A stretch of DNA of 64,000 nucleotides from Phyllobates terribilis (lineage: Eukaryota). The notes beneath the pieces were generated by a model. It was not told the DNA's origin. It saw nothing but the letters and a program-made list of their open reading frames with translations, and searched no databases. This document shows positions 19,346 to 64,000 of this stretch, piece by piece. Both the position numbers and the translations under genes were made by a program. The first letter of the stretch is position 1, and the number at the start of each line of letters is the position of its first letter. The stretch spans positions 231,322,001 through 231,386,000 of the forward strand of contig NW_027362762.1 of the NCBI RefSeq assembly GCF_046119375.1, in the 5' to 3' direction.

Positions 19346-19462
19346 AACCCAGACAATAGTTTTGGCCTAATACCATAGTTTGGCCACTCAGCTCTGCTCG
19401 GTTCACATCCATTATTTTTTTGTGCAAACAACTCCAGTGTTGTGAATTAGTTAACCACCAAA

Positions 19463-21769
19463 ATGAGTGGAAAAAGGCCTGCTGCTGGTGGAAAGGGGAA
19501 TAGGCGTGTTGGGAAGGGGAAAAAAGGTTGTGTCCGTGGATTAGGTGTTAAAGCAACAGTAACATCTGCAGAAGAAAGACCATCTTCCAGCAAAACTAAA
19601 ATGTCTACTTCTTTTAGCGGACAATGTGATAAGATCCCTTTCTTACGGCCACGTCAATCGCTACAAATTCCAGATGAGGCACTAAAACAGCAGGTGCTTC
19701 AACGGATATCAAGTGCTCCTTTAAGTAGGCTCTCCTCCACATCAACTTCAACATCACAAATACTCCAGTCCTCAGAGGTGTCACCCCAATTGCACTTGCT
19801 TCCACACAGCTCCCAAATCTCCAGCTGCCCGTCTGAGTATGAGGTAGAACAGATGGTTGAGTCTGCAGAGATGTTTGCTCATACTATAGCCTGGGAATCA
19901 GAGGTCGGCTCCAGCGCTTCTGTGAATCCAGACGAGGAAATGATCTGCACTGATGCCCAGAATCTTTATGAGTCGGATCCAGGACCAGACGCAGAAGGTT
20001 CTGACCATAATGTACACCCTCATTCCCAAACTGTAACTCCTGTTGGTGGAGACAATGAGGAAGACGATGATGAGACTCAAATACCTGATTGTAGCGACAA
20101 CTTTAGCTTTTTGTCAGGGCAGGAACAGGTTGGCTCTGAGGACGACGGGTGTGATAACACACAGGGTGATGATGATGAGTTTGGAGATCCCACTTACTGT
20201 CAACCCACAGTGAGCCAAGAGATGAGGTCAGCAGAGGAGGTGGAGGAGGATGCTAGTGACGACGAGGTCAGGTTGCGCCTTCCTGGACAGAGACGTAGTA
20301 CCGGAAGCACGTCAACAACTGCATCCTCAAACACAACTCTGCCTCTGACCACAAGTTGTGGTGGCTTTTCAGGTCGCATGGGTGCTAAGCCTTGCATAGC
20401 CTTGGCATTTTTTCAGATCGATAAAGATGACCCAACTCGTGTTATCTGTAACATTTGTCAACAAAAGCTTAGTAGAGGCCAAAAAATACATAGTTTGAGT
20501 ACTTCATGCATGAACCGGCAGATGGACATGAAGCATAAGTTGCAGTGGGAAGCTCACTGTGCTACAATGCCGGGCCAACCACCGTCTGCCCCATCTTGTG
20601 GATCTGCGGCCTCTTCATCCTCTGTGACTGGGTGGACAGCAGTCACACCTGTTTTGGGACTCAGACCTGCCACCGCTTTACCCGCAACAGCCAGTGTGAT
20701 GGGCAGGTCATCATTTTCTTTGGAGGTGGTAACACCAGCTGGTGTTGAGCGCTGTCCGACATCGATAGCACCACCTTTGGATCAAGGCAACCTAACATGT
20801 CTGCTTGCATCTTCCTCACAGTCCGGCAGTTTGCCGGGGACACCCTTATCAACCCCGGCTAAGCACAACAGCCAGCCCTCAGTCCATCAGATGTGGACAA
20901 GAAAAAGACCATTTCCTCCCAGCCATGAGAAAGCTAAGAGGTTGAATTTCACCATCTGCAGGCTCTTGGCTACAGAAATGCTGCCTTTCCGCCTGGTGGA
21001 CACAGAGGATTTTCGAGACCTTATGTCCGTCGCAGAGCCCCAGTACCAGATGCCCAGTCGGCACTACTTCTCAAAGAAAGGTGTGCCTGCGCTCCACCAG
21101 CATGTCGCACACAACATCACCGCTTCTTTGAGAAACTCTGTGTGTGACAGGGTGCATTTCACCACAGACACTTGGACGAGTAGGCATGGACAGGGGCGTT
21201 ACATGTCGATGACTGGGCACTGGGTAACTATGGTGACAGCAGTACAAGGAGCTGCTGTCCAAGTCTTGCATTCCCCACGAGTTGTGCGTCAATCCTCTTT
21301 ATGTCAAAGTTCCTCCACTGCTTCTGCCTCCTCAACCTCCTCTCGGTCCTCCACCTGCACCCAAAGCCTGTCTGGTCATGCCACAAGCTTTATAACTGCG
21401 CAGAAGGGATCCTGCACAACTCCTTACTATGCTGGCAGTAGGGCTCAACGTCATCAGGCAGTTTTTACTTTGAAATGTCTGGGAAATGTGAGTCACACAG
21501 CTGAGGAGTTGTGGTCAGCTCTGGAGAACCAATTTCATGAATGGTTGTCTGGACTGGACCTGAAACCAGGGAAGGCCGAGTGCGACAATGCTGCAAACCT
21601 GCGTGCGACCCTTCGCCGGGGCAATGTCACACACGTGCCTTGTATGGCTCACGTGTTGAACCTGGTTGTCCAGCAATTTTTAGCCCACTATCCAGGACTA
21701 GATGGCCTTCTGCAGAGGGCACGGTCGCTGTGTGCTCACTTCCGCCGTTCGCATCCCGCAGCTCAGTGA
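19463..21769 (+). pseudogene. hAT (Ac/ZBED-like) transposase, 768-aa open N-terminal part, C-terminus lost
   Basis: BED finger CNICQQKLSRG..MNRQMDMKH (first His changed to Gln), MLPFRLVD, HFTTDTWTS (D1), CDNAANL (D2), CMAHVLNLVV (CxxH). A stop at 21767 is followed by decayed HRLK*DVPT, and the hATC dimerisation domain is absent. Confidence 0.92.
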
Positions 21770-38177: not shown

Positions 38178-38495
38178 TTAAAGAGATCCTGTCATCAGAA
38201 TTATCCACGTTGAACTAAAGGTATGTTCATAATGACGCTATCATAATGATTTAATAAATACCTTCAGTGTAGAAATCTGCAGCCTGGTTTTTGTTAAATC
38301 ATGATTAGAAGTTTCAGATTCCTAAACTCTTTATGCGTCTGGGCAAGACTGTGGGGCAGGACTGTGGGTAGGGTCTTCAGCTCTGCCATTGCCTCTCCGC
38401 TGCCTATGGTGTCATTATCTTCTTCCTCATTTAAATGTCGTGCCAGTGCCATTATAGCTGCAGGCTGCCCTTGTGCTGATTGGTCTCATGGTAAG

Positions 38496-39766
38496 TGTAA
38501 CATACCTGGGGGCGTCCTTGCATAGTGGTCCATCTCCCACTGTGCAAGAGCGCGCACTTGATCTCCAGTCCAGTTTGCTAGCCTGGCTTCCCTCCATGCA
38601 GTCTGTTTGCCTCTGTGTCTGCTGCTTAAGGGCAGCGCCCGATCACTTCCTGCTTTTTGTACCTGCTGCAGGCACACCACTTGTGGGTCCTCAGCCTATT
38701 GCTGTCTGCCATCTGGTATTTAACCCAGCTGCTCCAATGAATCCCTGCCTGAGCATTGTGTTCTGTCAGTTGGCCTTTGGTCACTGATATGCCAGGTCCC
38801 GTTTATGTTTCCTGCCTTCGGTATCAGTTCCCGTGTCTGAACTGTGTCCTGTCTGTATTATCTTCTAGCCTGTTGTCTTCTGCCTATCCTGGAGGCTGTA
38901 TTTCCAGGCCTGTGTGAACCCGCTCCTGTATCTTGCTGCTGTGTCTGTTCTTGTCTGAATACTCTCCTAGCCTGTTTTGTTTTTCTCTATGTCCGTACTT
39001 TCCCTTTTTCTGCAGAGTCTGAACTCGTACCTAACTCCTGCTCGTTGTCACTGTACTTCCGTTTGTGAGTTTGTGGTCCACTCGCTACTTCTCTGCAAGT
39101 ACCCTGTGGGTATCTGGTTCTGCCTTTCCCTTCTAGTCTGTTCCGTGTGTACAGAGCCCTGTCCCCACCACGTTTGCGGTTTTCGCTTTGCTCAGCTCTG
39201 TCCACCGCGTCTGCGGTTTTCGCTTTGCTCAGCTCTGTCCACCGCGTCTGCGGTTTTCGCTTTGCTCAGCTCTGTCCACCGCATCTGCGGTTTTCGCTTT
39301 GCTCAGCTCTGTCCACCGCGTCTGCGGTTTTCGCTTTGCTCAGCTCTGTCCACCGCGTCTGCGGTTTTCGCTTTGCTCAGCTCTGTCCACCGCATCTGCG
39401 GTTTTCGCTTTGCTCAGCTCTGTCCACCGCGTCTGCGGTTTTCGCTTTGCTCTGCCCTGTCCACCGCATCTGCGGTTTCGAATTTGTCTCCCAGTCTGTA
39501 CTGGACCCTACCCAGCCTGCTCTAGTCTACCTGTTCCTGTATTCCCCGGTGTGGGTCAACAGCCGTGTCCGGTGTCTGACCTGGAGTAGACCCTGGTTCC
39601 TCTGCTCGGTTCCTCCCTGGTGCACTGGCGTCATATGCCGTCGTGTTACCTTGGTTGGATCGGGCAGATACTTAGTTACGCCCCTCCAGGCACTCGCTGG
39701 TTCATTGCACAGTGGAATCACTAGATAAACACGCACACGCCAGTCAGTCCGGGTGTGTGCATTACA
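38496..39766 (+). repeat. 5' LTR (1271 bp), TATA-like TATTTAA at 38717
   Basis: Direct repeat of 42176-43778, about 97% identical by eye outside the VNTR. Confidence 0.93.
39159..39480 (+). repeat. 37-bp VNTR in the 5' LTR, about 9 copies
   Basis: Unit TCTGTCCACCGCGTCTGCGGTTTTCGCTTTGCTCAGC. Confidence 0.95.
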
Positions 39767-39768
39767 GC

Positions 39769-39778
39769 ATGCTCAGGC
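39769..39778 (+). promoter_or_regulatory. Putative self-priming primer-binding site
   Basis: ATGCTCAGGC, 2 nt after the LTR end, is the exact reverse complement of GCCTGAGCAT at 38747-38756, 30 nt after the TATA-like motif. There is no TGG tRNA-type PBS here. Confidence 0.75.
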
Positions 39779-39816
39779 CATGGTTCCCGTTGAGCCCCAC
39801 GGCCTTCGCTCTCTGA

Positions 39817-42180
39817 GTTGTTTTCCAGCGAATACGTGCATTAAAAATAAATAAAATTTTTTTTTTTTCCTTAGCTGAGTTCCAGGCGAATTACGCACCC
39901 GTCCAGATCGATCTTTCTGCACTCGTTCCTGCGGATCCGCTACGTTACTATGGGGATCCAAGACAGAGTCGTGCATTTGTGGAGCAATGCATGCTACACT
40001 TCAAGTTCTACCCTCTATGTTTTCCCACAGATCGGCCTAATGTGGGATTCATGATGTCTTACCTAGAGGGTGATGCCTTTAATTGGATCACACCCCTATG
40101 GGACTCACAGGATCCAATCGTCCTGGACATAATGGCCTTCCTGGTGGCCTTTCTAATGGTCTTCGATGATCCTAACCCGGAGGCTCCTGTTGAAGCTTCA
40201 CTTCCCAATATCCCGGAGCAGCCCCGATGGGTAATGTGTGTGGGTAGCGCAATAGTCCTCCAGCCCAATGAGACTACTGCCCACCCAGAATCCTCACAGG
40301 GTGACTACACTCTCCGGAATACTTCTCCCAACCTCAAGAGGCAGTCCAGATGTGCTAGACGTAGAGGCAAGCCGTCACGCCAGGGTCTGTCCTCCCTGAG
40401 TCCTCATGACCCCAACCTTGAAGTCCCTACTGAAGCTTCATCTCCCTGTATCCCGGAGAAGCCCCAACGGGTAATGTGCGTGGGTAGTGCACCAGTTCTC
40501 CTGCCCGAAGAGACTGCTGCCCACCCAGAATCCACACTGGAGGACCCCCTGTTGCCTCCTGAATCCCCCGGGATACCACTTGATAACTATTGGAGAGAGA
40601 CTTCCCTATACTCTGCACCTGTTACCTCGCCCGCTTCGTCCAGGGAGTCCGACCTAGTGTTCTCCGAAGCAGAGGTTACCCCCGAGTCTCTACACCCGTC
40701 CGATCAGGCGGAGGATCTCCTGTTGTCTCTTGAACCCTTCGGGGTGCTACCTGGTTGCGAATGGACATAGACTTTCCTATACTCGGTACCTGATACCTCG
40801 GCTGCTTCATCCAGTGAGTCCGACCTAGTGTACTCCGAAGCAGAGGTTACCCATGAGTCTCTTCACCCCTCCGACCTGGCAGAGGACCTCCAGTTGTCTC
40901 CTGAGCCCTTCGGGGTGCTACCTGGTAGCGAAAGGACAGAGACACTCCTATACTCTGTACCTGATACCTTGCTCGCTTCATCCAGTGAGTTCAACCTAGT
41001 GTACTCCGAAGCAGAGGTTACTCCCGAGTCTCTACACCCCTCCGACCAGGCGGAGTACCTCCAGTTGTCTCCAGAACCCTTCGGGGTGCCACCTGATGGT
41101 GAATGGACAGAGACTTTCCTATATCCTGGATCTGATACCTCGCCCGCTTCATTCAGTGAGTCCAACCTAGTGAACTCTGAAGCAGAGGTTACCCCCGAGA
41201 CTCTACACCCCTCCGACCAGGCGGAGGAACTCCAGTTGTCTCCTGAACCCTTCGGGGTGCTACCTTATAGCGAATGGACAGAGACTCTCCTATACTCGGT
41301 ACCTGATACCTCGGCTGCTTCATCCAGTGAGTCTGAACAAGTGTACTCCGAAGCAGAGGTCATCCCCGAGTCAATACACCCCTCTGACCAGGCAGAGGAC
41401 CTCCAGTTGTCTCCTGAACCCTTCGGGGTGCTACATGACAGCGAATGGACAGAGACTCTCCTATACTCGGTACCTGATACCTCGCCCGCTTCTTCCAGTG
41501 AGTCCGACCTAGTGTACTCTGAAGCAGAGGTTATCCCCGAGTCTCTACACCCCTCCGACCAGGCGGAGGACCTCCAGTTGTCTCCTGAACCCTTCGGGGT
41601 GCTACCTGATAGCGAATGGACAGAGACTCTCCTATACTCGGTACCTGATACCTCGGATGCTTCTTCCAGTGAGTCCGACCTAGTGTACTCCGAAGCAGAG
41701 GTTACCCCCAAGTCTCTGCACTCTTCCGACCCGGCGGAGGACCCCCAGTTGTTTCCTGAATTCTCCGGGGTACCACCTGATAACAAAGAGACAGTGACTT
41801 TTCTACACCTTGTACCTGATACCTCGCCCATTTCATCCTGTGAGCTTGACAAGATGTACCCCGAAGCAGAGGTTACCCTCGAGTCTTTGCACCCCTCCAA
41901 CCCGTCTGAGGGCTTTCAGTTGTCTCCTGAACCCTCTGGGGTGCTACCTGATAATAAGTGGAGAGAGACTTCCTTGTGTGCTATTCCTGGTACTCCACCC
42001 GTTTCGTCTGTTGCTGAGGATGGCTGGATAGGAGGTAGCATCCTAGCTAACCAGAGGAGACCAGTTTTTCCGGTGGACAGTGGAAGTGATCTCCTTGAAG
42101 TAAAGGATTGGCCCTCGAATTCCCTGCGGAACATTCTGGCAGGCCTGAAGAAGAGGGGGCGTAAGGGGGGGGTACTGTAA
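39817..42180 (+). pseudogene. Gag capsid N-domain (PEG10/RTL/LDOC1-like) fused to Pro/Ser/Glu-rich repeats; one frame with a single internal TAG (40768-70)
   Basis: PLRYYGDPRQSRAFVEQCMLHFKFYPLCFPTDRPNVGFMMSYLEGDAFNWITPLWDSQDP..FLVAFLMVFDDP is the sushi gag pattern. ORFs 39979-40770 and 40828-42180 are in the same frame, and the intervening codons are open. The TAG corresponds to GAG in sister repeats. The start codon is unresolved. Confidence 0.85.
40555..42000 (+). repeat. 171-bp (57-aa) coding tandem repeat, about 8.4 copies
   Basis: Unit YSVPDTSPASSSESDLVYSEAEVTPESLHPSDQAEDLQLSPEPFGVLPDSEWTETLL, with register points at 40606, 40777, 40948 ... 41803, 41974. Confidence 0.95.
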
Positions 42181-43778
42181 CATACCTGGCGGCGTCCTTG
42201 CAAAGTGGTCCATCTCCCACTGTGCAAGAGCGCGCACTTGATCTCCAGTCCAGTTTGCTAGCCTGGCTTCCCTCCATGCTGTCTGTTTGCCTCTGTGTCT
42301 GCTGCTTAAGGGCGTCGCCCGATCACTTCCTGCTTTTTGTACCTGCTGCAGGCACACCCCTTGTGTGTCCTCAGCCTATTGCTGTCTTCCATCTGGTATT
42401 TAACCCAGCTGCTCCAATGAATCCCTGCCTGAGCATTGTGTTCTGTCAGTTGGCCTTTGGTCACTGATATGCCAGGTCCCGTTTATGTTTCCTGCCTTCG
42501 GTATCAGTTCCCGTGTCTGAACTGTGTCCTGTCTGTATTATCTTCTAGCCTGTTGTCTTCTGCCTATCCTGGAGGCTGTATTTCCAGGCCTGTGTGAACC
42601 CGCTCCTGTATCTTGCTGCTGTGTCTGTTCTTGTCTGAATACTCTCCTAGCCTGTTTTGTTTTTCTCTATGTCCGTACTTTCCCTTTTTCTGCAGAGTCT
42701 GAACTCGTACCTAACTCCTGCCTGTTGTCACTGTACTTCCGTTTGTGAGTTTGTGGTCCACTCGCTACTTCTCTGCAAGTACCCTGTGGGTATCTGGTTC
42801 TGCCTTTCCCTTCTAGTCTGTTCCGTGTGTACAGAGCCCTGTCCTCACCGCGTCTGCGGTATTCGCTTTGCTCAGCTCTGTCCACCGCGTCTGCGGTTTT
42901 CGCTTTGCTCCGCTCTATCCACCGCGTCTGCGGTTTTCGCTTTGCTCAGCTCTGTCCACCGCGTCTGCGGTTTTCGCTTTGCTCAGCTCTGTCCACCGCA
43001 TCTGCGGTTTTCGCTTTGCTCAGCTCTGTCCACCGCGTCTGCGGTTTTCGCTTTGCTCAGCTCTGTCCACCACGTCTGCAGTTTTCGCTTTGCTCAGCTC
43101 TGTCCACCGCGTCTGCGGTTTTCGCTTTGCTCAGCTCTGTCCACCGCGTCTGCGGTTTTCACTTTGCTCAGCTCTGTCCACCACGTCTGGGGATTTCGCT
43201 TTGCTCAGCTCTGTCCACTGTGTCTGCGGTTTTTGCTTTGCTCAGCTCTGTCCACCGCGTCTGCAGTTTTCGCTTTGCTCAGCTCTGTCCACTGCGTCTG
43301 CGGTTTTCGCTTTGCTCAGCTCTGTCCACCACGTCTGCGGATTTCGCTTTGCTCAGCTCTGTCCACCGCGTCTGCGGTTTTCGCTTTGCTCAGCTCTGTC
43401 CACCGCGTCTGCGGTTTTCGCTTTGCTCAGCTCTGTCCACCGCGTCTGCGGTTTTCGCTTTGCTCTGCCCTGTCCACCGCATCTGCGGTTTCGAATTTGT
43501 CTCCCAGTCTGTACTGGACCCTACCCAGCCTGCTCTAGGCTACCTGTTCCTGTATTCCCCGGTGTGGGTCAACAGCCGTGTCCGGTGTCTTACCTGGAGT
43601 AGACCCTGGTTCCTCTGCTCGGTTCTTCCCTGGTGCACTGGCGTCGTATGCCGTCATGTGACCTTGGTCGGATGGGGCAGATACTTAGTTACGCCCCCCA
43701 GGCACTCTCCGGTTCATTGCACAGTGGAATCACTACATAAACACGCACACGCCAGTCAGTCCGGGCGTGTGCATTACA
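42176..43778 (+). repeat. 3' LTR (1603 bp) with about 18 copies of the 37-bp VNTR (42839-43492)
   Basis: It is 332 bp longer than the 5' LTR, about nine extra 37-bp units. Confidence 0.93.
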
Positions 43779-45305
43779 GTAAGCTTCAGGAAAATGGCAC
43801 TGGTGGCAGCGCATGCAGAGACTTAGATCTTGACTCAATGACAAGCTGAGATCTCATTCTGCACATGCGACAACAACGTCGCCAATTTAGTGCAGACCAC
43901 CTAAGGTCGATCCGTGCATATGCCACCATATCAATATGTACAAGCCCCGCCCGCAGCTAGGGCACTGGAAGAGTGAAATTTAAATGAGGAAGAAGATAAA
44001 GACACTAGAGACAGCGGAGGGGCCGTGGCAGAGCTGAAGACTCGCCTCACAGTCCCAACCCACAGACCCCAACCAACACAATCCTGCCCTGATACATGAA
44101 GAGTTTAGGAATCCAAAAGTTCAAATGGTGATTTAGCAAAAACCAGGCTGCGGAGTTCTAAACTGAACGTATCTATTAATTCAGTATGACGGCGCCATTA
44201 TGTCCATAGCTTTAGTTTAATACAGAAAATCCTGATGACATATTCTCTTTATGCTATATTTTATATAGTAAAAATGGCTATTTTTTATGCAGGAGCATTT
44301 CATATTAGTTAATTATTTAATTATTATATCTCTTAACAGACAGAACTTCTTTCTATGGTCCGGTTCTGACCTCAGGGTGTAATATTTATACAAATATTAT
44401 TCATTTAAAATGTACCTGTTATTTCAGGCAACATTTCAGAATAAGCTATTAAGAATGTGAACTTGAGGAATAACAATTTGTCTGGCAAATATATGGCTTG
44501 AATCAGTCCTATTCTATATCTAATTTTAGTTTTCCGTAAGCTACTGGGTGGAAACTACTGCTATGATGTCTTGTCACACAAAAATATGAGGAATTCTTTC
44601 GCCCATGTCTCTATGTAGTACATGTTCAGAAGTTTGTGTAGCATAGAGCTTATTACACAGCAGGAATGAGCAATACAGTTATGAATCTAACTCTGCGATG
44701 AGGCAAAACACTTACTTGTTAGCGGTAGCAGGAACTGTCTCCCTGCCTGTTTCACTCTTCTCTTCTTTCCGCCTTCTCTCACCTATCCATAGATTTCTAT
44801 AAGCAGCTGTAATCTGATCCTACAGTGAGGTGGCAGTGTGTATTATTTTGACCATAAGGGATTTTAGCATATTTTCATACAGAATGATGAATGAAAGAGA
44901 ATGAAGTGACTCATAAGTGGAGAGAGAAGCATATTTCTGTGATAAGTCATATATTACAAAGTTTAGCTTAGTTTTAGTTAAGTTTTGTTAAATTTTTTAA
45001 CTATTGGGAATTAGTGAAAGACATTCATTTCAAACTTTGAAGTCGTAAAGCAGAATCAACAATTCCTAAAAGGATTAAGCATGGTTTGAGCCTGCAAATG
45101 ACTAGCTAAACAATAACAGTTACAGAGGTAGTGTACTACAGAGGAGGCATATTGATAATGGGTAATTCTTTTTAACCATAGTATAATATTTTATGCCTAA
45201 TGTGTTTGAGAGAAACATCATTTAGTGATGACCTTCAGGGGAAATTTTAGTATGTTGACTTCTTATTGATCACAGAAGCTCTTCCCGCATCACTGGTTAT
45301 TTTAA

Positions 45306-46573: not shown

Positions 46574-48166
<1,593 letters not shown>

Positions 48167-49234: not shown

Positions 49235-50833
49235 CAGTGGGTATGGAAAGTATTCAGACCCCTTTAAATTTTTCACTCTTTGTTTCATTGCAGCCATTTG
49301 GTAAATTCTAAAAAGTTCGCTTTATTCTCATTAAAGTACACTCCATCTTGACTGGAAAAAAACAGAAATGTAGAAATTTTTGCAAATTTATTAGAAAAGA
49401 AGAACTGAAATATCACATGGTCATAAGTATTCAGACCCTTTGCTCAGTGTTGACTAGTACAGCCATGAGTCTTCTTGGGAATGATGCAACATGTTTTTCA
49501 CACCTGGATTTGGGGATCCTCTGCCATTCTTCCTTACTGATCTTCTTCAGTTCCGTCAGGTTGGATGGTGAACGTTGGTGGACAGTAATTTTCAGGTCTC
49601 TCCAGAGATGCTCAATTGGGTTTAGGTCAGGACTCTGGCTGGGCCAGTCAAGAATGGTCACAGAGTTGTTCTGAAGCCACTCCTTTGTTATTTTAGCTGT
49701 GTGCTTAGGGTCATTGTCCTGTTGGAAGGTGAGCCTTCGGCCAAGTTTGAGGACCAGAGCACTTTGGTGAGGTTTTCATCTAGGATATCTCTGTACTTTG
49801 CCGCATTCATGTTTACTTCAATTGCAACCAGTCGTCCTGTCCCTGTAGCTGAAAAACACCCCCATAGCATGATGCTGCCACCACCATGTTTCACTGTTGG
49901 GATTGTATTGGGCAGGTGATGAGCAGTGCCTGATTTTCTCCACACATACCGCTTAGAATTATCACCAAAAAGTTCTATCTTCATCTCATCAGACCAGAGA
50001 ATCTTATTTCTCATAGTCTGGGAGTCCTTAATGTAATTTTGAGCAAACTCTATGTGGGCTTTCATATGTCTTGCACTGAAGAGTTGCTTCCATCGGGCCA
50101 CTCTGCCATAAAGGTCTGACTGGTGGAGGGCTGCAGTGATAGTTGACTTTGTGGAACTTTCTCCCATCTTCCTACTGCCTCTCTGGAGCTCAGCCACAGT
50201 GATCTTATTTACCTCTCTCACCAAGGCTCTTCTCCCACAATTGCTCAGTTTGGCTGGACGGCCAGGTCTAGGAAGACTTCTGGTGGTCCCAAACTTCTTC
50301 CATTTAAGGATTATGGAGTCCACTGTGCTCTTAGGAATTTTGAGTACTGCAGAAATTCTTTTGTAACCTTGGCCAGATCTGTAACTTGTCACAATTCTGT
50401 CTCTGAGCTCCATGGGCAGTTCCTTTGAGCTCATGATTCTCATTTGGTCTGACACGCACTGTGAGCTGTGAGGTCTTATATAGACAGGTGTGTGCCTTTC
50501 CAAATCAAGTCCTATCAGTTTAATTAAACACACCTGTACTCCAATGAAGGAGTAGAACCATCTCAGCAAGGATCACAAGGAAATTGACAACATGTGACTT
50601 AAATATAAGTGTCTGAGTAAAGGGTCTGAATACTTATGACCATGTGATATTTCAGTTTTTCTTTTTAATAAATTTGTAAAGATTTCTACATTTCTGTTTT
50701 TTTTTCAGTCAAGACGGGGTGCAGAGTGTACTTTAATGAGAAAAAAAATGAACTTTTTAGAATTTACCAAATGGCTGCAATGAAACAAAGAGTGAAAAAT
50801 TTAAAGGGGTCTGAATACTTTCCGTACCCACTG
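49235..50833 (-). mobile_element. Tc1 transposon of IR/DR (Sleeping Beauty/Frog Prince-like) type, full length, transposase frameshifted
   Basis: TA TSDs. About 200-bp TIRs with AGTATTCAGACCC direct repeats (near 49248 and 49427, mirrored near 50622 and 50808). Peptides [46 protein letters not shown]. Confidence 0.95.
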
Positions 50834-54200: not shown

Positions 54201-56371
54201 GCCGGGCCAGCGGACGAGAGCACCCACTGACCCCCATGTCTCCACAAGGGGTCTGCAGGGTCATCATGCCATATGCAAAAGGGCTGTTGGGCCATCATAC
54301 TATATATAGGGATCTGTGGGATCATCATTAGTGATGAGCGAGCGCTAAAATGCTCGGGTACTCGTTGCTCGGGTCGAGCACATTGGAGTACTCGGGTGCT
54401 CGACCAGAGCAACGAGCCCAATGCAAGTATATGGGAAACATGAGCATTTTTCAGGCGGCTCCCCTCGGCGGTTTGCAAAGGGCCTAAAAATTGCCCAAAT
54501 CGATGGGAACAGTGCTCAAATGACATGGGAACATCATGGGGAAGAACCTGGAAGCATCTCTGACTCCCAGATCACTGCTGTCAACAACGTTGTCAGAGTA
54601 TTACGCCACTTTTACGGACTCACAATAAAACATACAAAAACAAAAGCAAAATGGATTTTCCTGGAAATATGTTAAGGAACATGCTTTCCAGGGTAATGAC
54701 TTGTATATAGGGCAAAATAAAGAGCCAAAAACAAAAATACTCCTCCACACCTTGGGCTATGTTCACACGTAGCGTTTTTGATGCGTTTTTGCACTTTTGC
54801 ATTGCTTTCAACCAAGACAAATGCATTCACCAGGAAATGTCATTTTAACATTTTACAACCTTATCTTGCCATGTGGTGTGTGACACATCATCAGACACAT
54901 GAATACAGTGCTGAAAATACATGGGAACAGCATGGGGAATACTTCTGGAAGCATCTCTGTGTCCCAGGACACTGCCTAAAAGTGTGACCATCATAAGTGA
55001 TCCTTAGCGCATGTGACTCGCCCCCTGGGCAGTGGGGCACCCGGAACTGGGCTTCTATGCGATGCTGGGGGTTGTAGTGGCAACCCAATCCCGTGGCTCT
55101 GGGTGGTCAGACCAAATTGTGGCAGTCTATTTATCAGTGTTTTGAATGTCCGACTACGCCACCCGTGGATTGCGGTCAGGGATGACCGCCGCTGCAAGGC
55201 AGACCACTGAGGCTGATGTTGGTGTGCAGCACAGGGGTAGGACAACTCCCCATGGGAAGAGTGTAGCCTCAGGGCAGTGTAGGTGAATGCTGGGGGTGAT
55301 AGTTCAGGCCGCAATAGTAAGTGTTCAGAGTCCGCTTCAAACAGTCCAGGGTCTTTATTGCAGATGTTATTACTGACCCAACAGGAGTACTGGTTAGGAG
55401 TGGGCCTGGGTATCTGAGAGCATTCAGACGAGCCCCACTGGTCGGGGTGAGTGTGTAGGCCTACAGTTCTCTCTATGCTCTTTCTGACTATCCCCCTCTT
55501 CGTGGTGTAATAGCCCACGTCCCTGAGCTGGCCGTGTACTTTGCCTGTATGGCTTGTGACTCGGGCCTTAGGTACCTTTTGCTTTCTCCTGCTGTACTGA
55601 TCTCTCTGTGTGGCAGAGACTCCAGGTTTCTTAGGCCAACGGACCTGAAATGCCTCACGGGTTGGTTCTCTGCTGCTGGGCTTGCAACCCTGACAGCCTC
55701 GGACCCCAATGTCCGGTGGTGATTCTCTCAGCCAGGACCGGCTCTCGTCGCCTCTGTCCATGGCTCGCAGTCTCTCCTCTGCCTCATGGACTCCTCAGCT
55801 GCGGCTGACCTGTCCCTTCCTCTAAGGAACCCTTCTGGACACTTCAGAAGTGGGTTCTGGTCTCTCTAACCCTGCCCCAGTTCCTGCTTTTATAGGGGCT
55901 GCCTGCTCCCCCTACTTGCCTGGGACAGGAGGTGCTGCATGCTAATGGTCCCTGACCAGGGATCCTCCCTCCTCCTCTCAGACACAGCCTTTAATATTTT
56001 TGGCATCCAGGCCTGGGGTGACACATTCCCCCCTAGAAAAATTTAGTACTCCGAGTCTAAACAGGAAACACAAATACAGGGTGTAAACAATAACATAACA
56101 TATATTCAAGCACATTTTGTCCTTAAGGTCACGGCGCTTCCGTGACCGGGTGTCCATATCACCCAACAAGGTGAAGTGTTCCACAGTGTGGGGACCTGTC
56201 CCTATAAACCCCAAGTTCCTGGCCTTCAGCGTGACGACAAGGCCGAGCTAGCTACTTTAGGCCACAAGGGGGCCACGCCGGACAGGTTTTTCTTCTGTGG
56301 CCATCTTCACAAGAGGGCACCAAGTGCAACTATCTACATGGTAGTTCCGGCCATTCAGTGTCCATGACCCC

Positions 56372-59300
56372 TCAGTCCATAGAACTAGAAAAACTGGAGA
56401 AAACACTATTAGTTATCAGGTAACAACCATAAAACATTAAATATTTACCGGTAAATGTAGACTTTGTACTTAGATCTTCCAGCGAGCTGGTACTTGACCC
56501 TCTAGTGCTCCCGGTTGACCTGCGTAACCCACTGTCTGGTGGTGGTCTAACCTGGCTTTCCCCACTAGCATTTAGGGTACAGCTACTAGCTGGGTTTACA
56601 GGCAGGGCAGGCAGCTGTCTGCGTGTCCTTTGGCTTACCGCAGGCATGGCAGGCTCACTGTCAGCAGAGGGTTGACTCTCCTGGGCTGCTGGCATGGGTT
56701 CTTCTGCCTCCGGGGCTGCTTTTTCTTCTTGTTCTTCCTGCTCTCCTGTAGGCTCCTGCTGGGGAGGTTGAAGGAAGTGTAGGACGGGTACCACTACGGC
56801 ATCATTTATCCGAGTCCAGGACCGGGCGAGCTCTCCGAGAACGGTGCTGACCATTTCTTCCATGTCCACTGTGGCCTCAAGGTAATCTTGATCTTCACTT
56901 AGACTCTGCAGTTGCTCGGGGCACCGTTTTAGGTGGTCTCTGGAGACAGTGCTAGTGGTTTCTCCTCCTTCCTTGGTAATTACACATACCTTCAGGTTAT
57001 CATGGTTGTACGGCAGCACTGTGTACGGGTCACTCTCCCACTGGTCATCTAGCTTGTGAAGCCTTCTCTTCCACTTCAGGACCTGCTCACCAGGTTCCAG
57101 GAGACCAGCAGGGGCGTGTTGGTTGAAAAGCCTCTCTTGTTTTTCTCTCGCTTAAGCCAGACTCCTCTCCACACTCTCCTGTACCTTCTTGTACTGTAGC
57201 CGCCGTTCCGTATCCCAGTCCGCATCTGGGGAGGTGTCCTCGGGTGTCAGGACTCCCATCTCCAGGTCCATAGGCAGCTTACCTGGTCTTGCTCGCATCA
57301 GGTAAGCCAGGGTGCAGTTGGTAGCATTTACCGGGATATGGTTGTACAAGTCTATCAGGTCTGGCAGTTCTCCGGCCACAGGCTGCGTTCTTCCAGGGGC
57401 AATGTCTTGAGGAGATCAATGACGATATCATTCATTTTCTCACACAGCCCGTTGGTTTGCGGGTGGTAAGGCATTGTCCGAATCTTCCTACAGCCATAGA
57501 GGTTGCAGAACTCCTGGAAGTCTTCCGCCTCAAACGCTGGACCTTGATCTGTCAAGACCTGTTCCGGATACCCGTGTGGATGGCAGAAGTGTTGTTGGAA
57601 AGCTCTGGCCACCGTTTGGGCTGTCAAGTCTTTAACCGGGACCACCACAAAGAACCGGGAGTAATGGTCCACAATCGTGAAGGCATAGATGTAGCCGGAC
57701 CGGCTTGGAGCCAACTTCACATGGTCCAGAGCTACCAGCTCAAGAGGCTGCCTGGTGACGATGGGCCTCAATGGTGTCTTCTGGCTGGTACGGTCGTTCC
57801 TTCTGAGGTGACATGGGCCGCAGTCCCTGCACCACTTCTCTATGGCCCCTCTCATACCAATCCAGTAGAACCGCTCTCTCAGTAGGAACTCCAGTTTCTT
57901 CCACCCGAAGTGTCCCGCTCTGTCATGGTAGGCCTCCAGGACCATTGCTGCATCCCATCTCGGGACCACTACCTGCCAGGTAAGCTCGTGCGTCCGGTGG
58001 TTGACAAGCCTTCTGCACAGCTTACCTTCGTAGAGGAATAGCCTGCTTTTCTCCTTCCATAACTGCTTGGCTTCCTCTGGAGCATCCGGGCCAGGGCTAG
58101 CGTCTGCCTGGGTCAACAGGTCTTTCACCAGGTGAACTGCAGGGTCACTATCTTGCGTTTCAGCCCAGCCGTGGTGGGGTAAGGGGTTGAACATGACGGT
58201 GGTTAGGTCTTTGTCTCTTACCCGGTGAGAATACTGAGTGGCCCCATACCGGTGGAACGCAGTTAGCTCTACTTCCTCCAGCTCATCCGAGTCTTCTTCT
58301 CCTTTGGGTAGGTGGGGCATTCTTGATAGAGCGTCTGCATTGGCGTTGGTTCTGCCTGCCTGTTATTTGATTGTGAAGTCATAATTTTATAGCCGAGCCA
58401 TCCACCGCTGTTCTAGGGCACCTAGTCTTGCATTGTACAGGTGTGTCAACGGGTTGTTGTCCGTGTACACAGTGAACTTTGCGGAGGCCAGGTAATGTTT
58501 AAACCATTCTGTGACGGCCCACACCACTGCCAAGAATTCTAGCTTGAAGGAGCAGTAATTCTCCGGGTTCCTTTCAGTGGGCCTCAGCTTCCGGCTGGCG
58601 TACGCGATCACCCTTTCTCTGCCCTGTTGGTTTTGGGACAGTACGGCTCCTAGCCCCACATTACTGGCGTCTGTGTGGAGGATAACAGGCTGGCCATAAT
58701 CGGGGTAGGCCAGGATCTCATCCCCCGTGAGGGCCATTTTCAACTAGCCGAAGGACTCCTCTTCCGGCTTGTCCCACTTGAAGGGTGGCTTGTGACTTCT
58801 GGATTTAGACTGACCTATCAGGAGGTCCTGCATTGGAGCTGCCATCTTAGTGAACCCGCGGATGAACCTTCGGTAGTAGCCTACCAACCCGAGGAATTGC
58901 CTCACTTCTTTGATGTTAGAGGGGCTTGGCCAGCTCTTGATGGCTGTAACCTTGTCGGGTTTGGGGGCTACTCCCTCAGCACTCACCACGTACCCTAGGT
59001 ACTGTACTTTCGGTTTTAACAGGTGACACTTTAAGGGCTTCACTTTCAGGCCATAGCCTGCCAGGGCTTCGAACACCTCGGCCAGGTGCTTTAGATGGTC
59101 CTCGTAAGTCTTTGAATAGACAATCACGTCGTCCAGGTAAAGTACGACCGTCTCGAAGTTTCGGTGCCCTAGACAGCATTCCATCAGCCTCTGGAAGGTC
59201 CCAGGTGCATTGCAGAGCCCGAATGGCATACAGTTGAATTCACTCAATCCCATCGGGGTGGTGAAGGCGGTCTTCTCCTTGTCAGCCTCTGCCACAGGAA

Positions 59301-60673
59301 CCAGCCAGTACCCCCTAGTAAGGTCCAAAGTAGAGAAGAAATTAGCTGATTTTAGTGCGGCTAAAGACTCCTCTATCCTAGGTAACGGGTACGCGTCTTT
59401 ATGGGTGATACGATTGATTTGCCTATAGTCCACGCACATTCTCAAGGTACCATCTTTCTTTTTTACCAGAATCAAGGGGGCTGCCTAGGGGCTACAGCTG
59501 TCTCTAATGACCCCGGCTTCTTTCATTTCTCTCAGCATGCCCTTTGCGTTCTGATAGTGTGCAGGGGGTACAGGTCTGTATCTCTCTTTTATTGGTGGGT
59601 GGCTCCCCGTGGGGATGTGGTGTTCTACCCCTTTCACCCTGCCGAAGTCTAGCGTGTGCTTACTAAAGTTTCTCTCGTACTCCTGAACCACTGGGTAGAC
59701 TCCTTGTTTTTGGTGCGAGGGAGTGGAGTCAGCCCCCACATGGAGTTTCTGGCACCAGTCCTCCTTGTGCTTCTGGCAGCCATTATTCTCCACCGGTGGA
59801 GATGGAGGCAAGTGATCCACGACCCTGAGAGCATTGTGTTCGACCGCAAACAATTTGGCTAATGTAGCGTACCGGGGCAAGTGTACTTCCCTTTCCCCAA
59901 TGTTTAAGATCCAGACAGGCACCCTTCCATGGTGGACATCAACCACCCCCCGGGCTGTCAAAATGGTGGGCCTGCTGTCTGAGTACACAGGTAGTACCAT
60001 GGCTTGGTAGTCTCTCCCTCTTAACCCGATTGCAGTCCGACACCAGATCATCATTTCACTTTTGGGAGGCATGGCAATGGGGAACGGGTCGCTCATCCTC
60101 ACGCTACCGATCTCACCACCAGACAGTTCTACCTGTTGCCGTCTGATCAGTGCTTTTATCTCTTTCTGGAGGACCCTCTGTTGGCTGGAGCTCGCAGTCA
60201 TCGCCACCTGCTGCAAAATTACAATCACTTCTGAAAGACAATTTTCAATCACGTTAGTACCCAAGGTTATTTTAGGGTGACTTTCTCGACGGTCAATGTC
60301 CACAATGATCACTCCCTTCAACTTTACCAATCTTAATGCTCATCTCTCTGAACCCCACCTGAGGCACGGACTGGCCATTGCTGGCGATGACACTCAAGTC
60401 ACTGTCTGGATAGCGGGTTATATCAGTGTCACTCCGGTACTGCTTGAAAAGTACATAGGGGATGGTAGTCACTTGGGATCCAGTGTCCAGCAGTGCACTC
60501 ATGGGGATACCGTCCAGCACTACGGGTAAAACCGGGCGTCCCCCTTCGTACTTATCACTGCAAGTAGAAGGGCCTGGTGACCTTATGCCTGGTGGTTGAC
60601 CTTCTGCCCCAGGTCGGACCCATTTAAAGTACAGTATTTGGCTACGTGTCCCGGCTGGCTGCAACGGCGGCAA
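56372..60673 (-). pseudogene. Gypsy pol: protease, RT, RNase H, integrase and C-terminal extension, with several stops and frameshifts
   Basis: ALLDTGSQVTTI, LRMCVDYRQIN, YLDDVIV, HTDASNVGLGAVL, YHDRAGHFG..WCRDCGPC (HHCC), VALDHV, LTDQGPAFE, YHPQTNGLCEKMN. Confidence 0.95.
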
Positions 60674-61575
60674 ATCGGCTGTCCATCCTCAGTGTGCCGA
60701 TCGGCGGGCCTCCCTCTGAACGACGGGAACCTCCTCCATCGACGCCACGGGACATCCTCCGGACTGGAAGCCAGCTTGATTGGTCCTGACAGGTCCATCT
60801 GTAACGACTGTACGGTCCTGGTCAATGCAGCAACACTCTTTGTTAGTTCCTGGACCTGATGGTGCTGGTTTGCAAGCGGGGATGGGTTTAGGGCCTGCGC
60901 ATCAGCCCCCACAAGGTCTGCAGGGTAGGGCGCTGCCTCCTGGTGGTAAGTAATGGCAGGGCACCGGGAAACTGCAGCGCCACCTGGTGCGGGTTCTCCG
61001 AGCACCCGGATGGCCCTATCTTTGAACTGTGCAAAAGTCAAATCGGGGTTCTGTTGGGCCATGAGGCGCAGCTGGGTTCTGTGGATGCTGGACAGCAGAC
61101 CTTCTATGAACTGATGAGTCAACAGTTTATCGGTATCCTGCACACTGCCAGGGTCAGCTTGTTTGATTACTCCCAGAGCTTCTTGCAGGTTTAAGGCATA
61201 GTCTCTGATACTATCTTGGGCTCGCTGCTTACAGCCATAGAACCGCATTTTGATCTCTGCTGAGGTACGGGTGTCAAAGGTACCCCGCAGCCGGGTCAGA
61301 ATGTCCTTTACAGTCCTTTCCTCCTCATCTGACCATGATTTCACTTCCTGCTGGGTTTCACCGGTTAGCTGCCCCGTCAGAATGCTTACTTTCTGTTCTT
61401 CTGTCAGGGGATAAACTTTAAATAAACTGTGCAGTCTTTCCTTAAAGTCAGTTAATGTATGGGATTCCCCTGAGTATTGGGGCAGCCAGGCTGCTCCGGG
61501 GATGTAGGGCATGGAGAACGGCATCACCGCTGCTGCAGCCACGCTGGTGGTAGAAGGTCCCTCCGCGTCCGACAT
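60583..61575 (-). CDS. gag: Gypsy Gag (330 aa, PNMA-like capsid region + CCHC knuckle), open
   Basis: Uninterrupted ATG-to-stop ORF downstream of the PBS; CRRCSQPGHVAKYC. Confidence 0.9.
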   Translation of the reverse strand: MSDAEGPSTTSVAAAAVMPFSMPYIPGAAWLPQYSGESHTLTDFKERLHSLFKVYPLTEEQKVSILTGQLTGETQQEVKSWSDEEERTVKDILTRLRGTFDTRTSAEIKMRFYGCKQRAQDSIRDYALNLQEALGVIKQADPGSVQDTDKLLTHQFIEGLLSSIHRTQLRLMAQQNPDLTFAQFKDRAIRVLGEPAPGGAAVSRCPAITYHQEAAPYPADLVGADAQALNPSPLANQHHQVQELTKSVAALTRTVQSLQMDLSGPIKLASSPEDVPWRRWRRFPSFRGRPADRHTEDGQPICRRCSQPGHVAKYCTLNGSDLGQKVNHQA

Positions 61576-61910
61576 CTTCCTCCCCCCTAGTTAACCGTGG
61601 CCTACCTACCGGTGATCCTCTTCTGTAGGCCTCGGCTCCGCTCACGATGCTCTGGGCGAGGACCTTGCATCGCTCGGTGATGACATCGGCGTCCGCTGGA
61701 TCTCCTTCCAGGACCTTGCGCAGCGTCTCAGCAAAGGGCGGAGCTTCAGGTCTCGCGCGGTTATGATGTCCACGCCCCTATTCTTCCCGCGTGGCATCCC
61801 GAAGATGGCACCCGATGGCAGGAAACGGCTCCGAATGGCGGGAAACTTCACTCAGGTAAGTATAAAGTCTTTTTCAGGCACGCAATACCCGTTTGTGGCG
61901 GGTTGGTCAC

Positions 61911-61929
61911 AATCCTGCCGACTACGCCA
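61911..61929 (-). promoter_or_regulatory. Primer-binding site complementary to the tRNA-Ser 3' end
   Basis: Plus strand AATCCTGCCGACTACGCCA equals the vertebrate tRNA-Ser 3' end including CCA, adjacent to the 5' LTR. Confidence 0.92.
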
Positions 61930-64000
61930 AAGCTGACTTGCCCCCTGGCCGTGGGGCACCCGGAACCGGGCTTCTATGCGATGCTGGGGGTAGTAGTGGC
62001 AACCCGATCCCGTGGCTCAGGGTGGTCAGACCAAATTGTGGCAGTCTATTTATCAGTGTTTTGAATGTCTGACTACGCCACCTGTGGATTGCGATCAGGG
62101 ATGACAGCCGCTGCGAGGCAGACCACTGAGGCTGATGTTGGTGTGCAGCACAGGGGTAGGACTGTTGGTGTGCAGCACAGGGGTAGGACAACTCCCCATG
62201 GGAAGAGTGTAGCCTCAGGGCAGTGTAGGTGAATGCTGGGGGTGATAGTTCAGGCCGCAATAGTAAGAGTTCAGAGTCCGCTTCAAACAGTCCAGGGTCT
62301 TTATTGCATATGTTATTACTGACCCAACAGGAGTACCGGTTAGGAGTGGGCCTGGGTATCTGAGAGCATTCGGGCGAGCCCCACTGTTCGGGTTGAGTGT
62401 GTAGGCTTGCTGTTCTCTCTATGCTCTTTCTGACTATCCCCCTCTTCGTGGTGTAATAGCCCACGTCCCTGAGATGGCCATGTACTTTGCCTGTATGGCT
62501 TGCGACTCGGGCCTTAGGTACCTTTTGCTTTCTCCTGCTGTACTGGTCCCTCTGTGTGGCGGAGCCTCCAGGCTTCTTAGGCCAAGGGACCTGAAATCCC
62601 TCGTGGGGTGGTTCTCTGCTGCTGGGCTTGCAACCCTGACAGCCTCGGACCCCAATGTCCGGTGGTGATTCTCTCAGCCAGGACCGTCTCTCGTCGCCTC
62701 TGTCCCTGGCTCGCAGTCTCTCCTCTGCCTCATGGACTCCTCAGCTGCGGCTGACCTGTCCCTTCCTCTAAGGAACCCTTCTGGACACTTCAGAAGTGGG
62801 TTCTGGTCTCTCTAACCCTGCCCCAGTTCCAGCTTTTATAGGGGCAGCCTGCTCCCCCTACTGGCCTGGGACAGGAGGTGCTGCATGCTAATGGTCACTG
62901 ACCAGGGAACCTCCCTCCTGCTCTCAGACACAGCCTTTAATATTTGTGACATCCAGGCCTGGGGTGACACACATGCACCCGTCGTTGCAGACTTGCAACA
63001 ATCACAGTCCACGTCCTTGTCCCAGTGCAGAGTTCAGTTGTCGTTACCCCATTCCTTGGAATGCAAGCGCAAGTATGCAGCCAGCCACCAAACAAACCCA
63101 CAGGCTGCAATGCTATACAGCCAAATTTTTGACAGCTGCTTGTACTTGAAATGTGGCCTTTTAGGCTCGTGGAGGCGGAAGCTTTTCATAACCTCATGCC
63201 GACGGCGTCAGGGTGTTCACACTCGGTCCCCAGCCACCACTGTTTCTCCCGGTGTCATCTCCGCATTCCACAAGCACGGGTCCCACAACATTACCCGTGC
63301 CCTCCCCAGTGCACTTACTGGGGAGGACCGCCTAACCACAAACACATGGACAGGTGAATGTGGCCAGGGACGGTACGGAGCCAGTCCACTGCTTTTTTTT
63401 ACTGAGTTGTATTTCACCACAGCCATATTCTTTAGCTCGATGAAAGGACTGGCATAGAGGGAAACCGTATCTACTCTGGGTGTCATTTCTCCCAGGAAGT
63501 CCTCTAAAGCAGCTTTTGCAGAAGCAATGGCAGCCCTTCCAACATCAACTCGCACTTCTCGGTGGTGCTTTGACACACAAACATCTTTCTTTGTGCATTT
63601 TATTTCATGACTACAGAGTTGGGCATTGGCCTGATCTGCAATCCGATTTTAGAAATAACAAGCATAAGCACGTCCGATCCACATTTAAAAAAGAGCCATA
63701 GAGTGTCATGGAACCTTCCCAACCACTTTTCTTAGCCAGGACAGCTTCTTGGCAGGGTTGGACTGTCCCACCAGAGAATCCTTGGTGTGCCCTGGTTTCT
63801 ACATCAGGAGAGTTCATGATAGCGCTAACTTTGCGGCTGCTATGGGGCTCTTGAGCGGGGGAGGAAGGTGAGCCCTCAGAATCAAATCCTCTGGTAGGCC
63901 AATGTTTTTCAATCTGAAACAGCTTCTCAGTGGGAGTTGTATTTCAGCACAGCCATATTCTTTAGCTCAGTGAAAGGACTGGCATAGAGGGAAGCCGTAT

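Follow-up and report, generated by a model that had tools for sequence, protein, structure and literature searches.

A pol-less LTR retrotransposon family of Phyllobates terribilis with a constrained capsid N-lobe and a long frame kept open through acidic repeats

The 10.6-Gb genome of Phyllobates terribilis contains a high-copy family of LTR elements, with thousands of copies, in which a single frame joins a capsid N-terminal lobe to acidic repeats; this layout is a property of the family and not of one copy. The N-lobe is under purifying selection in the transposing lineages only, and the reading frame is kept through the repeats and the tail although their sequence drifts. We lean towards the view that this pol-less family uses its N-lobe protein in cis: the protein would co-assemble with the capsid of an autonomous helper, and the family's own RNA would thereby be packaged and reverse-transcribed.

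The element in the window

The window is a stretch of 64,000 nucleotides from contig NW_027362762.1. The whole element (38496-43778, 5283 bp) is flanked by a perfect 5-bp target-site duplication (TSD), GTAAG, and its LTRs have the ends TGTAA...TTACA. Its features are as follows.

38491..38495, + strand: 5′ target-site duplication GTAAG, from sequence
38496..39766, + strand: 5′ LTR, 1271 bp, from sequence and LTR alignment
38717..38723, + strand: TATA-like box, with the inferred RNA start about 25-30 nt further downstream, from sequence with a putative role
38747..38756, + strand: self-primer at the inferred RNA 5′ end, perfect complement of the 10-nt primer-binding site (PBS), from sequence
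38989..39064, + strand: coding part of a predicted LTR exon, ATG + 76 nt, whose phase fits the acceptor downstream
39065..39070, + strand: predicted splice donor GTGAGT, with a second in-phase donor site 30 nt downstream
39165..39478, + strand: 37-bp tandem array in U5, 8.5 copies, by tandem-repeat detection
39769..39778, + strand: self-priming PBS, not tRNA-type, by complementarity to the RNA 5′ end
39780..39854, + strand: 24-codon ORF from the ATG just after the PBS (the helpers' gag start site), ending in an A/T run
39857..39874, + strand: predicted splice acceptor, T-tract and YAG, 32 nt before the capsid start
39907..40170, + strand: capsid N-terminal lobe, 88 codons, by profile, alignment and model; start codon missing in the window copy
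40171..40296, + strand: 42-aa motif, copy 1
40297..40410, + strand: basic linker, R/K-rich
40411..40533, + strand: 42-aa motif, copy 2
40540..41974, + strand: 8.4 units of 171 bp (57 aa)
40768..40770, + strand: premature stop in unit 2 of the window copy
41975..42175, + strand: remains of an integrase linker and of the end of a chromodomain, decayed, in the frame of pol and reaching over the polypurine tract (PPT), by alignment to helper pol
42149..42172, + strand: PPT, common to chromodomain-bearing autonomous relatives
42176..43778, + strand: 3′ LTR, 1603 bp, including the 37-bp array at 42846-43491 (17.5 copies)
43779..43783, + strand: 3′ target-site duplication GTAAG, from sequence

The sequence confirmed most of what a first-pass annotation had described here: two LTRs with a perfect TSD, one frame, a capsid N-domain, two 42-aa motifs (the 140-nt copies at 40166 and 40406 are 79% identical) and 8.4 units of 171 bp. 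In the stretches flanking the length-variable 37-bp array, the LTR pair is 98.5% (659/669) and 95.8% (275/287) identical. The single frame does run from 39817 to 42180 with one internal stop only, but its first 30 codons lie upstream of the family start codon (window 39907). Similarly, the terminal stop is within the first bases of the 3′ LTR in the window copy, but its position varies between copies with the length of the G-run in the PPT. The assignment to a sushi/PEG10-type capsid N-domain by profile was correct in that DUF4939 matched the window frame (E=1.4e-4), but the match is weak (22.1 bits, below the Pfam cut-off of 29). Neither Gag-complete nor PR-RT-RH-IN Pfam domains were found in the window frame or in one unbroken family ORF, and a capsid C-lobe and knuckle were absent from the element in the domain scan. 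The 10 nt behind the 5′ LTR complement 10 nt just downstream of the TATA-like box; this pairing of self-primer and PBS is perfect in 7 of the 9 copies examined, and an older subfamily (L164) has a compensatory change.

The window copy is dead: its start codon is lost, a premature stop interrupts unit 2, and it has private capsid residues, two of them at columns that are invariant across 18 family and 5 helper sequences. The earlier idea that this very copy makes its own protein was thus not supported.

Several other elements lie in the window. The LTR element is near the centre of an older inverted-repeat element (arms 38179-38439 and 43975-44251, 79-84% complementary); the older element is a probable non-autonomous DNA transposon. 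On the minus strand, 55022-62462 is occupied by another LTR element (LTRs 95-97% identical), whose broken frames encode a PNMA-like gag with knuckle, RT and integrase. A tandem array of 110 bp x 17.6 (17408-19346) lies next to an open frame of 772 codons that has a BED zinc finger (19451-21769), and two Tc1/Sleeping Beauty-type transposase frames (46897-47862 and 49688-50572) are on opposite strands.

The family and its autonomous relatives

The first-pass annotation had named uniqueness of the copy as evidence against its reading; the copy is not unique, and the motif of the PPT and tail has 5,195 exact matches in the genome. A DNA search of the genome gave 3,540 candidates, 40 of which were scored. 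We fetched the top matches, 20 PBS-variant matches and 40 of the first 100 PPT rows (16 variants and 24 by position); the last sample (n=40) consisted of 37 family members and 3 elements ending in a chromodomain. After 14 loci without a complete family-type internal region were set aside, 87 copies remained. From these we removed 9 loci that duplicate a single site, together with 2 copies bearing large insertions; the 76 analysed copies that were left were thus chosen by similarity or by the exact PPT motif. A perfect 5-bp TSD flanks 38 of 45 scored copies, and the median LTR divergence of these 45 is 1.33%.

In contrast to the broken window copy, 39 of the 76 insertions, all independent, have an uninterrupted frame between start codon and LTR, and the breaks are private. 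Among the position-sampled copies, a set biased to an intact motif, 18 of 23 are open. Of 81 scored copies, 78 have the start codon (position of window 39907); the anchor failed in six more, which were left unscored. The breaks of the 37 broken copies are scattered. Because the members of three checked break-sharing pairs are not nearest kin, repeated breaks point to recurrence.

Some copies depart from the common layout. Nine loci are capsid-less (L091, L101-L103 and L106-L110), seven of them with the same truncation. A mobile capsid-less subfamily was considered and rejected, because one flank, found on several contigs, is common to all nine; they are one insertion, carried to at least nine places inside a larger duplicated segment. 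A subfamily of four (L167-L170) has two tandem, diverged capsid N-lobes, with the frame open in all four and the first predicted donor lost. One copy (L058:2276-6598) contains, inside its repeat array, a LINE-like ORF with endonuclease and reverse transcriptase (domains judged by eye), and this insertion is in frame with the capsid, giving one open frame of 1440 codons. Eight loci (L043, L059, L060, L062 and L065-L068) are about 96% identical to the window element (38496-43778) in the internal region and only about 80% in the LTRs; therefore, LTR and internal parts were swapped between subfamilies. Head-to-tail tandem elements with one common LTR were seen at L036, L037, L063, L068, L093 and L197. 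Window 39480-40400 is matched by sequence runs of three organisms, and the runs of two cover all bins; therefore, the family is probably common to related species.

At 175 genome sites, a chromodomain end is followed by the same PPT motif. These autonomous-type relatives, here called helpers, are about 30-fold rarer than the family by motif count (175 vs 5,195), and the domain scan found Gag, PR, RT, RH, IN and Chromo domains in them. Two of 3 helpers have the self-priming arrangement, and a U5 stretch of about 100 bp is common to helpers and family at roughly 70-88% identity. An autonomous partner with matching LTR ends had been anticipated. The relatives share the PPT, a similar self-priming PBS and U5 with the family, but their LTRs begin TGTAG and those of the family TGTAA. 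The earlier proposal of a high-copy parasite of an autonomous sushi-type element was supported.

The capsid lobe of the family matches helper Gag with E of about 1e-22 to 1e-24 (46-49% identity), 17 capsid residues are invariant between family and helpers, and the helper capsid matches the PEG10 structure 7lga. In a tree, 25 family capsids split from 13 sampled autonomous capsids with branch support of 100/100. Over this lobe the sampled helpers reach no more than about 44-55% identity, and the true helper may therefore be absent from the sample. Among the best 150 of 766 matches in public proteins, matches were in the capsid lobe only, at about 50% identity at best; the closest named ones were from frogs, and none had its best stretch in the repeats. 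Single-sequence homologue searches found no homologue.

The remainder of the frame points to gag-pol descent. All of pol had been thought missing, but a decayed chromodomain end of integrase, read in the pol frame, makes up the last ~70 codons of the family frame: this tail can be aligned in frame with the chromodomain end of helper pol (0/300 shuffles). Moreover, an older copy (L165) contains a decayed gag C-end, protease and RT-start in one frame with capsid and units (remnant scores 55 and 167, 0/300 shuffles each), and its stretch from the equivalent of the basic linker (40297) onward aligns with the C-terminal half of gag. From these alignments, because the tail is a chromodomain end and L165 keeps gag, PR and RT remnants in frame, we regard the ORF as the product of an in-frame gag-pol deletion that was then hollowed out. 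The self-priming PBS, the sushi-type capsid, the chromodomain descent and the LTR, TSD and PPT with recent insertions are all present; judged from these sequence features, the element is a non-autonomous derivative of Tf1/sushi-type chromoviruses. Neither DNA nor protein-profile comparison matched the 57-aa unit to any of 20 autonomous loci. Its derivation from the RT-start remnant was rejected, because the proposed match did not pass shuffle tests; a captured host exon is one conceivable source.

Selection on the lobe and persistence of the frame

Variants in the 76 copies were classed column by column, those in at least 3 copies being called shared and singletons private. In the capsid lobe (88 codons), the shared variants comprise 30 synonymous and 27 nonsynonymous changes and 0 stops (omega 0.31, p=1.5e-5). 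In contrast, the singletons comprise 20 synonymous and 57 nonsynonymous changes and 1 stop (omega 0.95); the two classes differ (Fisher p=0.002), and shifted-frame controls gave omega values of 1.63 and 1.59. Because shared variants are constrained and private ones are neutral, selection acts on transposing lineages and not on inserted copies. The first-pass annotation had named a dN/dS near 1 as evidence against its reading; at the lineage level the value for the capsid is about 0.3.

Another possibility is that the frame is open because the copies happen to be young, or because the host keeps it as a gene, with no function for the element. The low median LTR divergence of the 45 scored copies agrees with youth, because open frames are expected if the founder was open. 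However, 11 subfamily pairs have capsid dN/dS of 0.19-0.46 at dS of 0.25-0.55, which largely refutes youth, and the neutral decay of individual copies shows that they are not kept by the host. We therefore hold this explanation to be very improbable.

The capsid signal might instead be inherited, if subfamilies repeatedly took gag pieces from a close, unsampled autonomous family in which the selection acted. The swapping of LTR and internal parts indicates that recombination is common, and only 150 of 88,990 capsid candidates were scored. However, all 150 scored matches are 89-100% identical to the query and the fetched ones have the family layout; the 25 family capsids stand apart from the 13 autonomous ones, and the best public-protein matches are only about 50% identical. 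Moreover, the frame is kept also through parts found in no autonomous element. We consider inheritance of the signal quite improbable, though not so remote as an accident of youth.

In a separate observation, the last helix of the lobe (window 40117-40170) is more hydrophobic than any helper-lobe stretch, with peak hydropathy of 1.3-1.9 in 7 copies vs 1.0-1.3 in 4 helpers.

Outside the lobe, the family variants showed no significant amino-acid constraint in the motifs, the basic linker, the units (omega 0.75-1.13) or the tail (0.90). The substitution pattern of the window's own units had been taken as a sign of selection. At the amino-acid level this did not survive, because their pooled dN/dS is 0.75 in frame vs 0.79 and 0.77 in the other two frames. 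Selection on the element's own ORF was thus upheld for the capsid lobe (omega about 0.3) and for the keeping of the frame, but not for the protein sequence of the repeats (omega about 1).

Shared stops over capsid, motifs, units and tail number 0 vs ~7.6 expected (Poisson p ~5e-4), 412 of 425 detected units are exactly 171 bp long, and the shared indels in the tail are of 3 and 6 nt. Exceptions to the kept frame are 4 stop alleles in 2-4 units each and, in the tail, one stop and one deletion of 1 nt, each present in two copies. The array varies from 1 to 10 detected units per copy; in one natural copy (L036) it is 20% D+E with a net charge of -89.

This pattern raises the alternative that translation of a long open frame itself matters, through RNA stability, escape from nonsense-mediated decay or delivery to assembly sites, and that the protein is mostly a by-product, the N-lobe being kept for folding or tolerance of the nascent chain. 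The repeats, motifs and tail have omega near 1 and yet are without shared stops or frameshifts; in old subfamilies decayed gag-pol occupies the same frame, and content was swapped while the frame stayed open. In contrast, an omega of 0.3 confined to the capsid lobe is not readily explained in this way, nor are the 17 residues invariant with helpers or the lineage that duplicated the lobe. On balance, we judge this explanation unlikely.

Expression, putative mechanism and known counterparts

The ATG directly behind the PBS was discarded as a start site for the protein, because only a 24-codon ORF (40 of 41 copies) or an 11-codon ORF (the remaining copy) follows it. In 10 copies, the unspliced leader is 1.2-1.8 kb long and has 4-9 upstream ATGs, and the LTR has one or two GT(A/G)AG sites. 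In most copies, a T-tract and YAG precede the capsid start by 32 nt. Of 72 scored copies, 55 have in the LTR an ATG, 76 or 106 nt ahead of the donor, from which a stop-free stretch leads in phase to this acceptor; in 5 copies that have a 1-nt deletion, a second acceptor is the one in phase. Under a single ancestral event, such agreement of phase has a prior of one in three. One subfamily lost the first donor and kept the second, 30 nt on. No comparable conserved donor was found in 20 helper LTR regions. Invariance of the donor was dropped as evidence, because the copies were chosen by that motif and the argument is circular. The predicted exon peptide showed no clear amino-acid constraint (6 synonymous and 11 nonsynonymous shared variants). 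No RNA run was listed among the public runs that contain the stretch. Contigs of such runs, compared with two repeat-free stretches, had no joint and, in the 24 listed out of 51, no loose end at the predicted donor; because these runs may be DNA, this counts neither for nor against splicing. From these predictions, the chances are about even that the protein would be made from a spliced mRNA starting in the LTR.

For the adaptor reading that we prefer, the helper would supply Gag, PR, RT and IN. The N-lobe would join helper capsomers and the basic linker, although without significant constraint, might bind RNA, so that family RNA enters helper particles and is then packaged and reverse-transcribed. 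The acidic array is likely a disordered spacer whose length and sequence matter little; it may be kept open because translation must reach the end, for mRNA stability or delivery.

AF2 gave a helical capsid-lobe model (pLDDT 87), for which the best Foldseek rows were capsids, none at E<=0.001. A predicted complex of the lobe with 4 helper capsid copies scored 0.42 vs 0.02 for the best control; the runs agree in at least 93% of contacts, and partner pLDDT is at least 74. Of 78 solved complexes, 51 reach the mark for such scores, as do 2 of 108 mismatches. At scores of 0.60 or below, 5 of the 78 solved complexes pass, as do all 4 passing mismatches; in the range of 0.42, a pass is more often wrong than right unless the complex was likely beforehand, and it can reflect likeness to solved capsids. 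The model thus lends weak support to co-assembly of the N-lobe with helper capsid. Action in cis is suggested by a single observation, that no dead lineage has transposed among the 76 copies, which were picked by similarity or exact PPT motif. If the protein is made from a spliced RNA without the PBS, co-translational capture of this RNA cannot be the mechanism, and cis would then mean the same locus or cell.

The N-lobe protein might instead be a dominant-negative modulator of helper assembly, which limits or redirects the helper and does not package its own RNA. RTL8, which is close to a capsid N-domain alone, acts in this manner on PEG10: as described in the accessible text, it enters PEG10 particles and lowers their yield (PMC11684626). 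In favour of this, motif counts put the autonomous relatives at about one thirtieth of the family, and many of those sampled are broken. However, selection is on transposing lineages while private variants are neutral, and poisoning of its own helper would not be selected in cis unless output shifts to the parasite, in which case this explanation merges with the adaptor reading. Restriction of the helper, which had also been suggested from the sequence, thus fits the pattern of cis selection less well than self-promotion does, and a pure modulator seems to us improbable. A more elaborate form of the adaptor would be a spliced gene with its first exon in the LTR, an N-lobe in the helper shell and a tunable acidic 57-aa array that serves as an RNA-like decoy on helper nucleocapsid, so that particles fill with parasite RNA; this version is conceivable but rather doubtful.

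Non-autonomous LTR elements are usually treated as protein-less. Pol-less gag-bearing LTR elements, cis-acting deletion-fusion proteins and half-capsid host genes have nevertheless already been described in the parts of the literature accessible to us. The best reading, by analogy, is an adaptor modelled on the cis-acting fusion of mouse IAP 1Δ1. In the portions available, this element is described as having one gag-pol fusion ORF formed by internal deletion; it depends on Gag and Pol supplied in trans and is helped in cis by the fusion protein, and new insertions are dominated by this subtype (PMC6466679, PMC7411935). On that description, the family is similar in its in-frame gag-pol fusion by internal deletion. 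However, IAP 1Δ1 is a class II ERV with one 1.9-kb deletion and the family a self-priming chromovirus, in which constraint is confined to the capsid N-lobe, itself now only about 50% identical to that of sampled helpers through drift, and everything else has decayed or given way to an expanding acidic repeat.

Plant TR-GAG elements are non-autonomous LTR elements with a single Gag-derived ORF and, in the sections consulted, are reported to be still active (PMC4350172). As described there, they are <4 kb and encode a Gag precursor; in contrast, the window element is 5.3 kb and is without capsid C-lobe and knuckle, and the family has acidic repeats and a chromodomain remnant. In the accessible text, Xenopus 1a11 and Xretpos/lambda-olt 2-1 are LTR elements without pol homology; 1a11 encodes a 71-kDa Gag-like protein, and an LTR can act as a first exon (PMC4585706). 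Compared by description only, these have tens of ORF copies and are thought to have lost mobility, whereas the family has thousands of young copies. RTL8, LDOC1 and other half-capsid SIRH/RTL genes are presented, in the passages available, as the N-lobe alone of a sushi-type Gag (DUF4939) with variable disordered neighbours (PMC11684626, PMC11011659). On this account they are fixed host genes without LTRs, under host selection; in contrast, the family is mobile and LTR-flanked, and its copies decay neutrally once inserted. With Tf1/sushi (V-clade) chromoviruses, for which a self-priming PBS and a sushi-type Gag are described in the available text (PMC6317226), the family shares these two features, the chromodomain remnant and the 5-bp TSD; as far as that text goes, it differs in having no functional PR, RT, RNase H or IN. 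The layout had been put forward as undescribed. In full-text literature that covers few subscription journals and no supplements, we found no described element with a capsid N-lobe and acidic repeats, and a repeat-library entry is possible; this part of the claim holds for the literature accessible to us, but pol-less gag-encoding LTR elements and cis-acting fusions were known.

The family adds thousands of 5-kb insertions to the genome of P. terribilis. It offers a case in which half a capsid is kept by selection on the mobile element itself, before host domestication, with a neutral control within the family. Its natural series from decayed gag-pol in frame to capsid lobe and repeats bears on the origin of N-lobe-only genes, and also serves the question of how parasites out-compete helpers (~30:1 by motif count). 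If the version with a spliced gene and an acidic decoy is true, the family would be a protein-armed satellite of a vertebrate retrotransposon and a living intermediate toward half-capsid genes of the RTL8/LDOC1 type.
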